From NCBI RefSeq assembly GCF_009931435.1, contig NZ_CP043414.1: a stretch of 64,000 nucleotides of DNA; one strand, 5' to 3'. Source of the stretch: Escherichia coli (GTDB lineage Bacteria > Pseudomonadota > Gammaproteobacteria > Enterobacterales > Enterobacteriaceae). How positions within the stretch are numbered: position 1 is the first letter of the stretch; each line of letters opens with the position of its first letter. This document shows, piece by piece, positions 24,001 through 30,000 of this stretch. A program made the position numbers.

Positions 24001-27000
24001 AAGAATAAGTAGAACAGAATCCCGAGGAAAACTAATTAGTTGCTTAGGTGAATTTCTGTGGTATCTCTCAGCTCAGAACGATCTTGAGTTTATAAAACAC
24101 TTCATACCACGTTACGCTGAATCCGCTGAGTCAGATGGGAAAATACATGGTGGTTACGGGCCACGGTTGTTTAATATGCGTGGTTTATATAATCAGCTAA
24201 AAAATGTCATCAACCTTTTGCAGGAGAAAAAACCTACCAGACGTGCAGTAATACAGCTTTTCGATGCCTCAGACTTGGTGCCCTCAAAAACTGAACAGCG
24301 AGAATACGTAGATATTCCTTGTACAATATCTATGCAGTTTATTGTCAGATGTGAAGAGCTGCATCTATTTGTTTGTATGCGTTCTAACGATGCCTTTATG
24401 GGGCTGCCTCATGATGTATTTGCGTTCACGATGCTACAGGAATTAGTTGCCCGCTTGATAGGATGCGAATTGGGTCACTATCATCACTTTGTATCCAGCC
24501 TACATCTCTATAAAAATGATTTAGAAAAAGTGAAGGCTCTTCAGAAAGAGGGGTTCATGAGCACCCTACCAGTCATGGGATCGATGCCTGAAATGCATTC
24601 CTTAGATGATATCTTACCCCTGCTTGAGGCAGAAAAAGCTCTTCGAGAGAATAAGGAATTTGATATTGACACTACTTCCTTGAATGACTACTGGAAGGAT
24701 TTATTGCGTATATTAAAAATCCACTTTTTGTTACGTTCACATACACCCAACCACAAAGGACTAGCCTTCCAAGAGTTGGCTGCAATGAAAAATCAGGAAT
24801 ATCGGTTTATTTTTGAAGGAAGACTACAATGAAAAGACATAATCAAATCAGTCAGCTGGTTAGTAATTTGCAAAATTTTAGCCGCAATGAACACAACCTA
24901 AATGGTCTAAGTTCTCCTGCCTGCTTTGATGTTTTAGCCTGTCAGATTATCGACAGTATACGTCGTATACGCTATGTGGAAACTCTTGCATTACGGACCG
25001 ATTATATGACTCCGTTACGAAAAGAGCCGAATTCTGATGTTTTTGATCCTCTCCGCGCTGCCTGCCTTTATCTTCGTGACAACAATTACGATGAAGCCTG
25101 CTGGCTGGTTTTCCTTGCCACACATTTCGGCAAGAGTAACAAAACCGGCTGGATTTTGTGTCGAGATATATACAGTGGACTCGGTACACAAACGTGGACA
25201 TGGGATACGATAACTGATGACTTTGCTGCTTTTGAACAATGGTTCGCCAGCGTCTCTGATGAGTTGACAGCTAACAGTAGCCTAAGACAATATGGTAACC
25301 ATCGGAAATATGAAACGAAGAAATATCACTCTCGTCGTTCAATACCTGCGGTTTTTCGCTCTTACATCGGATTCATTGGTGCTACACACAGTCATGAGGC
25401 TAGGTTTGCAGAGGCCAAGAGCTTTTCATCTTCACCAGAATCTTTATTCGAACTATTGTATTCAGGGCTAAATGCCGTGATCTCATTTGGACGAACCGCA
25501 AAATTTGATTACCTAACTATGCTCAAGAAAACGGGACTTCTGGATGTAGAGCCGGGTCATGCTTTTCTGAATGGAGCAACCGGGCCCCTTCAAGGAAGCC
25601 GGCTACTTTTCAGCAATAGCCGGACTGCTGGTGACACAATAGACGTATTGAATGAAAAACTAGCTGACCTTGCGGCAATTATTCCTGCACCCTACTTGAG
25701 AATGCAGGTTATTGAAGATGCGTTGTGCAACTGGCAGAAATCACCTGACCGTTATGTCTATTTCGGCGGCTGATATCAGACGATATCTTCTTTACGGAAT
25801 CTCACTTTAAACCGATTAAGGTGAGAAAAAGGTATATTACCTTCATGCTGCAAATATCCCAGTACGATCCCTTTGGATACCCCCATTTTCCTAGCTAACC
25901 GGATGATCTCTTTCCAATGCCGGACACCATAGCGACTAAGTTGCTGCCGGTATTCTTCTGGGATAAGAACATCAACGGCAAATTTATCTGCTTCCTTTTC
26001 CTCTTCCGACGAAAGACTATCTTTACCTTCTACGCGAACTCGGACAGCTTCATGCAAGATGAGATGCCCAATCTCATGAAACAGCGTAAACCAAAAATGG
26101 TCATCGGTCAGATAACGGAAACTCATGACTAGGGTTGCGCGATCTGGTGTAAAAAAGCAGGTAGCACCACTTGCCCGACATCCCTTTGGCGTTGGCAACA
26201 CAACGAGAGAAACTCCAGCAGTGGCGAGAAGGTCGCGAATGTAAGGGATAAAAATCCTCATGTCGGGTTCATTTGTAGCTTTGCGCAGTTCTGGCAACAA
26301 TGCTATCAGCACCTCTTTATCCCATACAGCACAGTTTTGGTTTGAGGTAAGTTGTGCAGCCCTAGTCAGCCACACCAAATCGGCCATAGGCTCGGTTGCC
26401 AGATTAAGAGATTTACGAAAAGCGACCAAAGGAGCATCTGACTGAATTTTATAAAAAAAATCATTGACGGAATTTATTCCGAAAAACGATAGGCAGTGCT
26501 GGAATTTACTTTCCCGAGTTGTAGTTTTGGGGATCCAACCAAACTCCATCATATCACGTACAGGCAATGATTCGAGCCAATCATTATTCACTTTCTCGAG
26601 GTATCCAATTTGCTGGCGATAAGCGACTTCGCGCTTGATCCAGAAGTCTGTCGATACGTTGAATAACTCCTCAAGCTTACAAGCCAGAGACTCATTGAGT
26701 CGGATTTTTCCTTCAAGAAGTTGCTGACCCCGGATAAGAGACAATCCAATCCTCTTACTCAGTTCTTCACCAGAAAGCCCATGTTCATCCATTAGATCTA
26801 TAATTGTATCACCGGGTGGAGATACCCAGTCAGGCTGGAAGTCCTGCGTAACTATCATTTCACGTCACCTATGAACACTAACCGTATCCGGCTAACTCGG
26901 GACCAGTTAATTGTATTATCTTGATTTTTGGGCTGAACTGTATTCCCACAGACAAATCCCATTTTTACATCACCGAGAATGGTAATTGTAATACACTCTT

Positions 27001-30000
27001 CCCCATCCTCAAAGCAGACCTCCGGCGAACCTACGGGCAACAGTAAAATGTTGTCTGTCACGGAAAGATCGGAAAGTCGCGAGCGTAGTCTTGATGCCAC
27101 TTTGTCACCAAAGATCTCATTTGCCTCATGCATACTCTCGCAAATAGTCCTTAACTTCTTGCTTTGAAAGGTAATGAACAAAATTATCCACTTTTATTTT
27201 TCTTGGTTGCTACGTTTATAGCAAACTCAACGCTCATTCACAAAATGAGATGTAGCGAATTAATGGACTCTGCACATATTAAATGTTAATGATGGACTTA
27301 AAATCACGGATTCGTAAGGGAAACATGAAAGGTAAACATCAAGACACTAAAGCCCTGTCTGACGTGCTAGCGGAAATGCAACGGCAGGATGCCAAATGGG
27401 GGGCAGACCGTAATCAAGATCCTTTTATCTGGGGAGCGATTCTCGGAGAAGAGGTGGGAGAATTTCATCAGGCTGTCCTCCATGATCGTTTTGGTGGTAA
27501 AGCAGCCGGTACCAGTAGGGAGGAAGCAGTACAAATTGCTGCTGTTGCACTGCAAATCATCGAATATTATGATCGCGTAATAGATTGATAAATTAGAATT
27601 AATCAACTAAGAGTCTTTTACACGCGAAGATGAACTCTGGCAGCCATCTACCTTCGTGGGCCTGTAGAACACATCTAATTGCAATACTCCCAGTTAATCA
27701 CTAACCAGCCTCTCCAGTAAGGCTGGTCGATTAGGTTTAATTAAACAGATATAACAAGCAATTCACTTGGTATTACGCGGTTCACACAGACTTCTTTAGT
27801 TGTGTCATATCCTATAACTTTCAGAGGCTTATTTACGGTATTATCACGAACGGTGCAAAAGTGGCTCTTCCGCAACCTAGGTGGAGATTTTCATGCCAGT
27901 GGACTCATTACCCTCTGCCTAAGTAGTTCAAATCCGGCTCGACCATACATCAGACGTTTCAGCATCTTCAGGCGATTTACATGACCTTCGACAACACCGT
28001 TACTCCAGCGGCTGCTGGTTGCCTCACATATAGCCGCGGCATCAGCTTCCATCCCCGCAGCCACGCGCCGAAGTTCTGCTGAACCGTTTTCGTGGACTCG
28101 AGTGAACCAACTGCTTAGATTTGATTTATTTGGGGTTTTCAGAATACGGTAGAACTCAAGTACTAGTTGCTGCGCTATTTTCAGCGCCGGTTCTTTTTCA
28201 CACATCAGACTAATAAATCGGGAAGCATAATTTTCTTCACCCCTGATTATTATCCAGGGCATCAACCAGCGGCTTACCCGGGACACTGAAGGAAGTCTGG
28301 CGGCAGTAGTAACTGGTGGGTTCCAGCCTTTACGCCATTTGGCAACAGCATCCCTGACGATGGTTTCACTGCCTGTAACCCCCGGGCCACCATTTCCCGC
28401 CATATCCAGTCGCTGGTGTGCTGAATTGGTCATGTATGAAGGAAGATATCAATGGTGGTATCTCCCTTTCAAAAGGAAGTGAAAAGCTTGATGCCTGCTG
28501 CCAGGCAATCAATATTACGTGCTTTTAACGACTATCCTAAATGGTGGTAGCTATGCAGAGCTCCCGGTCCTAGCGCTGGGAGCTTATCGCTTATCTTTAC
28601 CGTAAGCGTAAACGGACCGCCGTATGTAGCCATTAAACCAGTATTGGTAACGTAGATACCCACCTTTTCAAAAGGGAAGTGGATAAAAGATAGCGAAAAT
28701 GCGAAGAGTTGATTAATGCATTGAAACAAAATTCATTAATGATGAACTTGGAGAAAAGCTCCATCGTTTTATTGGCTCAAAAAACATATCCCATAGATGA
28801 TCAGCCATACCTTCATTGGTTAGCAAGGTATCCTGTGAGTAGCCATGGCTGAAGATGCCCATTGATGGGCGAAAACCAAGGATCTGACCGTTAGAGCAGT
28901 TATGTCGTTAAACACATCACCACCATATGCCATCCGGCTCACTTCGTCGGCCAAATTAGTGTGATATTCTTTCCAGAAATGCTGTTGTATCCACGACATA
29001 AGGCGATGATTGATGGAGCAGTCTCTCAATTTTGAAATGTTGCGCAGCCAGTGGCCGGAACTGGCTGAACTCGCGTGTATGGCGGAACGCTATGTTCACT
29101 CCGATCCGGAAAGTTGTCTGGTCAAGCTGCGCAACTACACTGAATTGATGGTGCGCTGGTTGTATCGTCAGGAGCGGTTGCCGGAAGGTATTAAGGCTAA
29201 TCTTTACGATTTAATGAATGCTGATGTCTTTACCAGCATGATGCCGGAAGCCATCATCATGAAAATGGATGCGCTGCGTATCCATGGCAACCGTGCCGCG
29301 CACGGCGGACGTATCAAAGCTAAAGATACTTACTGGCTGCTCAAAGAAGCGTATTTGTTGGGAATTTGGCTGTATGTTCGCTACGCCCACGGTAATGTTG
29401 ATGACTGCCCCAAATTTACACTCCCTCCATTAACACAATCTTCAGGTCGTGCAGATGAAAAACGTCTGGAAGATGCAATCAGGGCTCAGGATGAAAGCCG
29501 TGAGCGCGAACTGGCGCTGCAACGCGCACTACAGCAAGAACAGGAAAAGGCCGAACACCTCACTCAACGCCTGAATGAAGCCAGAGCGCGTAACCAGCAT
29601 GTTGCCGATATTCTCTCTATTGATGAAGCGGAAACCCGCCGTCGCCTGATTGACTCTCGCCTGCTTGCTGCTGACTGGAATGTAGGCGAAGGCCTTAAAA
29701 ATACCGATCAGGTTACGCAGGAACATCCCGTTAAAGAACAACCTACCGCGACCGGAGACGGTTATGCGGACTATGTCTTGTGGGATGAGGCACACAAACC
29801 GCTGGCGGTGGTGGAAGCAAAAAAAACCAGCGTCAATGCCGAGCAAGGACGAATTCAGGCCCGGCTGTATGCAGACTGGCTGGAAAAAGAATACGGCCAG
29901 CGTCCGATCATCTTCTACACCAACGGCTATGATATCTGGCTGTGGGATGACCATAAAACTCATGGTTATCCCCCGCGTCGGGTGTTTGGCTTCTACAGCA

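Follow-up and report, generated by a model that had tools for sequence, protein, structure and literature searches.

A HigB-fold protein without HigB catalytic motifs and its HTH-peptidase partner as a possible control module of a candidate anti-phage cassette in Escherichia coli

Overview

A 64,000-nucleotide stretch of Escherichia coli DNA (contig NZ_CP043414.1, assembly GCF_009931435.1), here called the window and the reference for all E. coli coordinates below, carries at 25776-27588 a gene for a 108-residue protein, a gene for a 360-residue protein that joins a helix-turn-helix (HTH) to a metallopeptidase (HTH-peptidase), and a divergent MazG-like gene. A first-pass annotation had taken this arrangement for one typical of toxin-antitoxin (TA) or stress-triggered derepression modules. 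The functional unit extends past these limits and takes in a convergent operon at 23852..25773 that encodes a thymidylate-synthase-like (TS-like) protein and an aGPT-Pplase family protein. In this lineage the pair is not autonomous; it is half of a conserved four-gene cassette, which counts five genes in Enterobacterales. With moderate confidence, the pair is interpreted as the module that controls or triggers a candidate anti-phage cassette of four to five genes, in which the small protein, a pseudo-HigB, would act as a binding partner and not as a toxin.

A conserved tail-to-tail cassette

The same four genes recur in Serratia, Vibrio cholerae, Pseudomonas, Mucilaginibacter, Methylophaga, Pectobacterium, Providencia and Pantoea, with identities of 86% in Serratia, 55% in Vibrio cholerae and 39% in Pseudomonas. 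Their layout is recurrent: the small gene and the HTH-peptidase gene run one way, and the genes for the aGPT-Pplase3/ADDT protein and the TS-fold protein converge on them, as they do in every close relative examined. Synteny thereby upholds one part of an earlier suggestion, that the pair and the TS-like operon belong to one cluster of nucleotide-related and regulatory genes. The linkage also appears from the other side. A reciprocal search of IMG/VR with the aGPT-Pplase3 profile returned 27 loci, and a convergent HTH-peptidase gene is present in 26 of them, the 27th being interrupted by a contig end.

The two genes that meet at the center of the cassette are convergent in 71 of 72 loci, and their stop codons lie -46 to +46 bp apart (median ~0) across phyla. 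At the E. coli junction (25771-25778) the distance is 2 bp. Because the stop codons are ~0 bp apart, there is no space for a terminator, and none was detected between these head-on genes. Convergent transcription or antisense interplay may therefore belong to the design of the cassette. A rearranged form occurs in Sorangium cellulosum (locus L047), the only locus with the aGPT-Pplase gene upstream of the pair on the same strand and the TS-like gene downstream.

A distant set of loci was assembled by scanning one genome per species and keeping the 80 best loci, which span many phyla at 30-43% identity. The small gene lies immediately upstream of the HTH-peptidase gene, on the same strand, in 75 of the 80. 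The enzyme operon adjoins the pair in 35, chiefly in the closer relatives, and in 40 the pair stands alone. A recurrent third gene, PD-lambda-2 C-like or other, was sought beside the stand-alone pairs and not found; the remaining clusters were antisense artefacts or comprised <=5 loci. The search of cultured phage genomes yielded only homologues of <=28% identity.

The cassette is variable in its interior. In 19 of 69 cassettes, that of E. coli not among them, the aGPT-Pplase and TS-like genes are separated by more than 500 bp containing an unannotated gene. At three loci a gene of 265-281 residues is called in this gap (L006 8015-8854, L008 8011-8808 and L009 7981-8826); it has no PHROG or NCBIfam match and could supply a missing kinase-like step.

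The small protein and its lost catalytic motifs

The 108-residue open reading frame (ORF), which the NCBI annotation pipeline (PGAP) and RefSeq leave without annotation in E. coli, is a real gene. Exactly 108 codons and a TTG start are common to five enterobacterial genera, among which its pairwise ratio of nonsynonymous to synonymous substitution (dN/dS) is 0.12-0.28. When 1.84 billion representatives are scanned in full with HMMER, 641 clusters (50% identity, E<=1e-3) emerge that align end to end; most members are 105-111 residues long, with alignments beginning at residue 1-3. The TGA stop overlaps the ATG of the HTH-peptidase gene as ATGA at 26855-26858, the 4-bp overlap described in the first-pass annotation.

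An AlphaFold2 model built on 70 homologues (predicted local distance difference test, pLDDT, 94.7) gives the protein a RelE-type alpha/beta fold, and its best matches in fold comparison are Proteus vulgaris HigB, YoeB, YafQ and RelE. The profile searches that had been proposed against RelE, HigB and Gp49 came back empty: the protein has no match in Pfam even at E<=10 and none in NCBIfam or PADLOC, these three families included. The Pfam HigB-like_toxin family (PF05015) is matched at E<=0.1 by just 4 of the 70 family members, the family profile finds nothing meaningful among PDB sequences, and PHROGs offers one weak match (phrog_28451, E 0.018). The likeness to HigB is seen through fold comparison only.

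In the small proteins of stand-alone pairs, H-P-L-K-G-D-R, a HigB signature, is retained, as is D-[YT]-H at the C-terminus; their counterparts in P. vulgaris HigB are His54 and Asp90-Tyr91-His92. PDB entries exist for the DeltaH92 and Y91A variants of HigB, positions targeted for trapping pre-cleavage states. His occupies the His54 column in 37 of 40 unique stand-alone sequences, and the C-terminal motif is likewise kept in 37 of 40. Neither motif is found in any of the 63 unique cassette-linked proteins, that of E. coli included, so that cassette linkage and loss of the catalytic motif are strictly correlated. The E. coli protein reads SPEVCFEDGEE... in the motif region, ends in IGDVK and, in the hhalign alignment, places Glu in the His54 column. 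Judged from these alignments, the small protein of the cassette-linked lineage is probably a degenerate HigB kept under purifying selection. Because His54 and D-Y-H are gone from all 63 cassette-linked proteins, it is unlikely that the protein here serves as a ribosome-dependent RNase toxin of the classical kind.

These results bear directly on a classical HigBA TA system, in which the 108-residue protein would be the RNase toxin and the HTH-peptidase its antitoxin and autorepressor, serving island stabilization or a stress response. Such a system would account for the HigB fold and the HigA-type HTH, for the toxin-first order with its 4-bp overlap, as in higBA, and for the names 'killer suppression protein HigA' and 'plasmid maintenance antidote' that some databases attach to homologues. 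The TTG start and the weak Shine-Dalgarno sequence before the small gene, which suggest low translation, are also in keeping with it. The contrast of 0/63 with 37/40 in the catalytic motifs and the near-silence of the HigB-like_toxin family nevertheless speak against a classical HigBA, which moreover leaves the invariant peptidase site and the obligate enzyme partners without account, and we regard it as very unlikely. What survives of the proposed TA-type arrangement is its descent from HigB/HigA, with a HigA/XRE HTH and an ImmA/IrrE peptidase; the small protein itself is an unlikely toxin of the HigB type, given the missing motifs.

The HTH-peptidase

The 360-residue protein, which RefSeq calls an XRE regulator, has more than 1,398 homologues at full length. 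Pfam recognizes Peptidase_M78 (PF06114, 2.4e-10) and HTH_3 (0.0015), and the central ~150 residues carry no annotation. The family profile matches PDB sequences of HigA (2icp, 4.8e-10; 4mcx_A, 7.8e-10), CapP (0.005) and an IrrE orthologue (0.077). The single sequence reaches the HigA model TIGR02607 at 7.6e-5 with 22.5 bits, under the cut-off of 47.7, and the HigA match is therefore domain-level only. The HTH and HEXXH noted in the first reading are both in place, the latter as HEIGH at residues 261-265. H261, E262, H265, H269, E277 and E287 are invariant across 30 diverse homologues (38-86% identity), and the M78 domain, with its intact HEXXH and downstream Glu, is predicted to be a peptidase.

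Other matches differ in extent. Those to CapP, RmrA, Lit and the IrrE orthologue are local and limited to the HEXXH region, where the likeness to Lit/Peptidase_U49 is weak. The PADLOC model PD-Lambda-2_B (PDLC03982) matches at 3.3e-30 over residues 15-341 (profile positions 60-378 of 402), and phrog_2439 at 4e-29. On the basis of the HigA-type HTH, the M78 domain and the PD-Lambda-2_B match, the pair is taken to descend from HigB/HigA, the antitoxin having acquired an ImmA/IrrE zinc peptidase as well as a central domain.

The near-full-length match raises the question of whether the pair works by itself. Among the relatives, PD-lambda-2 of E. coli (Vassallo et al. 2022; PMC9519451) is alone in having been tested. 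It works by abortive infection: B is toxic alone, A neutralizes it, and defense requires a third gene, C. An autonomous system of this type would have the HTH-peptidase as a toxin that cleaves a target in the host, in the way Lit cleaves EF-Tu, and the small protein as antitoxin; the enzymes and the MazG-like protein would be mere cargo. The toxicity of B and its neutralization by A, the weak likeness to Lit around HEXXH and the 40 of 80 relatives in which the pair occurs without enzymes are consistent with such a system, and a catalytically dead HigB suits an antitoxin-like role. However, no gene C is present here, and PD-lambda-2 A, whose PADLOC model misses the 108-residue protein, belongs to PF09907. 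The 26/27 reciprocal linkage and the overlapping 3' ends across phyla are hard to explain as a chance neighborhood, and the stand-alone pairs keep an intact HigB, which implies a different functional state. An autonomous PD-lambda-2-type system is accordingly considered unlikely, and the reading of the pair as control module of the cassette is retained.

The enzyme arm and the MazG-like gene

Searched against PDB sequences, the TS-like protein matches MilA, a cytidine monophosphate (CMP) 5-hydroxymethylase, at 1.6e-41 over residues 26-304, and thymidylate synthases (TS) at 1e-18 or weaker. Its best NCBIfam TS score is 81 bits for a cut-off of 327, which places it outside ThyA. The position of ThyA Asn177 is Asp in this protein (LPHDVF, compared with AVSDVF in MilA and VPFNIA in TS). 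In TS and dCMP-hydroxymethylase enzymology, the switch from Asn to Asp is established to give cytosine specificity. The enzyme thus looks, from its sequence, like a cytosine-specific, MilA-like (d)CMP hydroxymethylase. The second protein of the operon belongs to aGPT-Pplase clade 3 (Pfam PF18746 and PF18724; aGPT-Pplase3 5.5e-90, ADDT 1.1e-58), and the sequence search found no solved relative. The cassette contains no glycosidase, methyltransferase or kinase of the MilA/Bcm pathways, and its E. coli form contains no 5-hydroxymethyldeoxyuridine (5-hmdU) DNA kinase.

The divergent MazG-like ORF had been placed at 27283-27588 with 101 residues. Its existence is upheld, and its start most likely lies at 27325, giving 87 residues, because homologues are 87-88 residues long, cross-genus conservation begins at ATG 27325, and ATG 27283 falls within a conserved promoter-like element (27264-27292). 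RefSeq likewise starts its 'MazG-like family protein' at 27325. The proposed check against MazG and HisE profiles gave a divided answer. Pfam and NCBIfam, as well as PADLOC, are silent, and PHROGs returns two families of unknown function (phrog_24212, 4.1e-37; phrog_2831, 1.1e-17); in the PDB, the family profile does match two entries across LtEEvGE, the MazG-type 1vmg (E 0.009) and 5ie9 (E 0.92). E42, E43 and E46 of the EEvGE motif are invariant in the family. An AlphaFold2 model (pLDDT 92.9) retrieves YpjD, HisE-like, MazG and DCTPP1 structures in Foldseek with probabilities of 0.8-0.96 and weak E values of 0.08-3. The label MazG-like, for an all-alpha protein resembling nucleoside triphosphate (NTP) pyrophosphohydrolases, is reasonable, though short of proof.

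The MazG-like gene keeps its syntenic place in Serratia, Pectobacterium, Providencia and Pantoea, and is confined to Enterobacterales. It was considered as a universal member of the cassette and rejected as such; it is an accessory. At a single Mucilaginibacter locus (L008, 5105-5485) the place of the MazG-like gene, upstream of the small gene and divergent from it, is taken by a NUDIX hydrolase gene, which may be a functional replacement by another nucleotide pyrophosphatase. Homologues fused to a PF24187 domain occur in Klebsiella (P0310, P0312 and P0319, 173-177 residues), and another (P0322) is encoded by the large (~354 kb) Yersinia phage fHe-Yen9-04. These fused and phage-borne proteins hint at a wider role of the small pyrophosphatase family in phage-host nucleotide conflicts.

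Gene layout and control regions

The features of the cassette are collected in Table 1. Promoter-like elements conserved in five genera precede each of its transcription units. For the small gene, TGCTATAAA is invariant in the five genera, with its -10 at 27215-27220 on the minus strand, ~35 nt upstream of the start. The MazG-like gene is served by TGGACT-17-TAATGA on the plus strand, the element that contains ATG 27283, and the TS-like operon is preceded by TTGACT-18-(TG)GTAATGA.

Table 1. Positions in the window of the cassette genes, protein domains and control regions
Feature	Coordinates	Strand	Basis
Small 108-residue HigB-fold gene (pseudo-HigB)	26855..27181	-	ORF, TTG start, TGA stop
360-residue gene: HigA-type HTH, central domain, ImmA/IrrE (M78) Zn-peptidase (predicted)	25776..26858	-	ORF, Pfam, PADLOC
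HigA-like HTH domain, residues ~11-84	26607..26828	-	Alignments to 2icp and 4mcx_A
Peptidase_M78 domain, residues 237-332	25863..26150	-	Pfam
HEIGH motif, residues 261-265 of the 360-residue protein	26064..26078	-	Sequence
Divergent control region, 143 bp	27182..27324	no strand	Five-genus alignment, sequence
MazG-like 87-residue gene	27325..27588	+	PGAP model, homologue lengths, conservation
aGPT-Pplase clade 3 / amino-acid:DNA-transferase-like gene	24829..25773	+	Pfam
Divergent thymidylate-synthase-fold gene (TS-like)	23852..24832	+	PDB sequence search
Promoter-like element of the TS-like operon	23792..23821	+	Conserved in five genera

A perfect 6+5+6 inverted repeat, CTCATTcacaaAATGAG, at 27233-27249 coincides in part with the -35 expected for the small-gene promoter. 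In Serratia another palindrome, ATCACtttttGTGAT, occupies its place. The two could conceivably be a co-varying operator, a weak candidate whose arms are short enough to have arisen by chance. As evidence for an operator the palindrome was set aside, its arms being 6 bp each and its sequence not conserved. The recurring 8-mer GGTAATGA was also rejected as a shared operator, being part of -10 elements or coding sequence.

Genomic context and links to defense

The DNA is an E. coli chromosomal island, in which the cassette lies between a dGTPase gene and a type I restriction-modification (R-M) system. The dGTPase gene (21140-22393, minus strand) encodes a homologue of anti-phage dGTPases (PADLOC 1.4e-109). 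An IS3-family insertion sequence (22523-23745) separates it from the cassette. The first-pass annotation had counted the dGTPase into the same cluster as the TS-like operon; as a cassette member it is rejected, since the IS3 element intervenes, the dGTPase is a known stand-alone defense system and it does not accompany the cassette in other taxa. The IS3 element ends ~50 bp before the promoter-like element and ~100 bp before the start codon of the TS-like gene; regulatory DNA upstream of this operon may have been truncated or replaced by it.

On the other side, at 29010-37814, type I R-M genes hsdR/M/S are followed by a gene for a 540-residue ABC-type ATPase (PDC-M55A 1.4e-40, NsnB, AriA-like). 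An overlapping gene encodes a partner of ~300 residues with no PADLOC match, and the two may be a defense pair embedded in the R-M operon. Farther along, 43640-64000 is a block of high guanine-plus-cytosine content (60-67%) with blaTEM, a Tn3-family transposase gene, merA, IS21 istA/istB and aadA1; the block is a Tn21-like region for resistance and mercury that has inserted into the island. Colinearity with E. coli RX24 spans only ~16.4 to 34.1 kb of the window.

In other genomes the cassette also keeps company with mobile elements and defense genes. In Pantoea agglomerans (locus L092, 4268-8001) all five genes of the cassette lie within a P2-like prophage, flanked by the replication gene gpA on one side and the portal/terminase genes on the other; this interval is a reported hotspot for defense cargo. 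The neighbors of the cassette in Providencia are an integrase gene and a specificity gene (Methylase_S) of type I R-M. DefensePredictor includes the identical TS protein, WP_000174035.1, among the novel defense genes that it predicts, with a log-odds of 7.6, highlights an unvalidated aGPT-Pplase system with a homologue of a known defense gene, and has validated a TS-containing system, DS-4, with different partners (kinases, TIR) and a different TS (PMC13092281).

The context also weighs on a non-defense alternative: a damage-inducible switch like ImmR/ImmA or CapH/CapP, whose autocleavage under stress would derepress the enzymes for production of a nucleoside antimetabolite, in the manner of MilA or bacimethrin, or for modification of a mobile element's own DNA. 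The M78 domain does match CapP and an IrrE orthologue, the TS-like enzyme is nearest to MilA of an antibiotic pathway, and the cassette is frequently found on prophage-like contigs. It is, however, carried as cargo in variable hotspots and not beside lysogeny or integration modules, and it is flanked by defense systems. The missing MilA/Bcm enzymes and the missing 5-hmdU DNA kinase of the E. coli form likewise argue against such a switch, which we hold to be quite unlikely.

Proposed mechanism and significance

From the observed gene, folds and domains, synteny, motif loss and genomic context we infer binding partners, a trigger, a peptidase substrate, a chemistry for the enzyme arm and an anti-phage role, which would combine as follows. 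The pseudo-HigB would bind the HigA-like domain and hold the HTH-peptidase on DNA, proteolytically silent and repressing local promoters. A phage- or damage-derived cue would then free the peptidase to cut itself, its partner or a cellular target. This cleavage would switch on the enzyme arm, or cooperate with it, and the enzymes would divert or modify pyrimidine nucleotides, probably those of cytosine, and thereby stop phage DNA replication.

A bolder version, which we consider doubtful, is an inducible nucleotide-hypermodification immunity. Here the dead HigB would be a sensor or clamp and infection would fire the HigA-peptidase. The MazG-like, MilA-like and aGPT-Pplase enzymes would make a modified nucleotide out of the dCTP/dCMP pool, or modify DNA as it replicates, so that phage replication is poisoned, and the head-on, terminator-less operons would constitute a bistable switch.

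Several points weigh against the pair as a control module. The 40 stand-alone pairs imply that the pair is able to work without the enzymes, and the linkage could therefore reflect the co-carriage of two modules and not one mechanism. Convergent orientation is an unusual layout for a regulator and its target, and an operator common to the three promoter regions was sought and not found. The case for motif loss is built on a low-probability hhalign match and motif inspection and not on a solved structure. Cassette-linked small proteins conserve other polar residues, R11, H80 (in most, but Asn in E. coli), R98 and K100, which could make a different active site. The TS-like, aGPT and MazG-like proteins have no model in PADLOC, and the support for the cassette is computational throughout.

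Bacterial genomes commonly encode HTH-peptidases accompanied by a small RelE-like protein, and of these PD-lambda-2 is the sole one tested. The cassette offers a natural comparison, as the same scaffold has an intact HigB when alone and a degenerate HigB when tail to tail with a pyrimidine-modifying operon. This pattern suggests how a TA pair becomes a control module for another effector. If the interpretation is true, it would provide the first function for bacterial clade 3 aGPT-Pplases and for MilA-like hydroxymethylases outside antibiotic pathways, and nucleotide hypermodification, so far a phage counter-defense, would join the host defensive repertoire. The segment 23700-27700 is present at >=80% coverage in 231 of 5,426 complete E. 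coli genomes; since the cassette occurs in ~4% of these genomes and in many phyla, it is experimentally accessible.

Comparison with known systems

PD-lambda-2 and the pair share a small RelE/HigB-superfamily gene directly upstream of a fusion of an Xre/HigA-type HTH to a peptidase, and both occur in mobile-element defense contexts. Of its components, B is present here as a near-full-length match. PD-lambda-2 A is of another HigB family; its PADLOC model does not match the 108-residue protein up to E=10, and only the superfamily fold is shared. The P4-antitoxin-like C is not present, the 360-residue gene ending 2 bp from the aGPT-Pplase gene. Unlike PD-lambda-2, the pair described here lies tail to tail with a hydroxymethylase/aGPT-Pplase operon and has a HigB-like partner without catalytic motifs. 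It departs from P. vulgaris HigB-HigA in the loss of the His54 and Asp90-Tyr91-His92 equivalents and in a HigA homologue ~280 residues longer, the M78 peptidase included.

Combination of an M78 HEXXH peptidase with an XRE-type HTH recalls ImmR/ImmA, DdrO/IrrE and CapH/CapP. In these systems repressor and protease are separate and the protease cuts the repressor, whereas here they form a single polypeptide with a HigB-fold partner. Nor is a cyclic-oligonucleotide-based anti-phage signaling system (CBASS), an integrative and conjugative element (ICE) or a radiation-response regulon attached. RosmerTA (RmrT/RmrA; spr1629-family) also has an 'antitoxin' of HTH and M78 domains, a small upstream partner and an anti-phage setting. 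Its RmrA models match the 360-residue protein at E values down to 4e-10, over ~50-120 residues at HEXXH only and with 40 bits against an NCBIfam cut-off of 335, and its partner proteins are unrelated to the small protein.

The enzyme arm resembles the thymidine hypermodification pathways of phages (TS-like hydroxymethylase, 5-hmdU DNA kinase (5-HMUDK) and aGPT-Pplase/AADT) in bringing together a probable TS-fold hydroxymethylase, an aGPT-Pplase-family enzyme and a small putative NTP pyrophosphatase. It differs from them in the absence of a DNA kinase from the E. coli form, in a hydroxymethylase that looks cytosine-specific and MilA-like and in an aGPT-Pplase of clade 3. DS-4, despite its other partners and different TS, shows that a TS-containing operon can defend. 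By analogy, the association of a putative pyrophosphatase with a probable cytosine hydroxymethylase recalls phage T4, with its gp56 dCTPase and gp42 dCMP hydroxymethylase.

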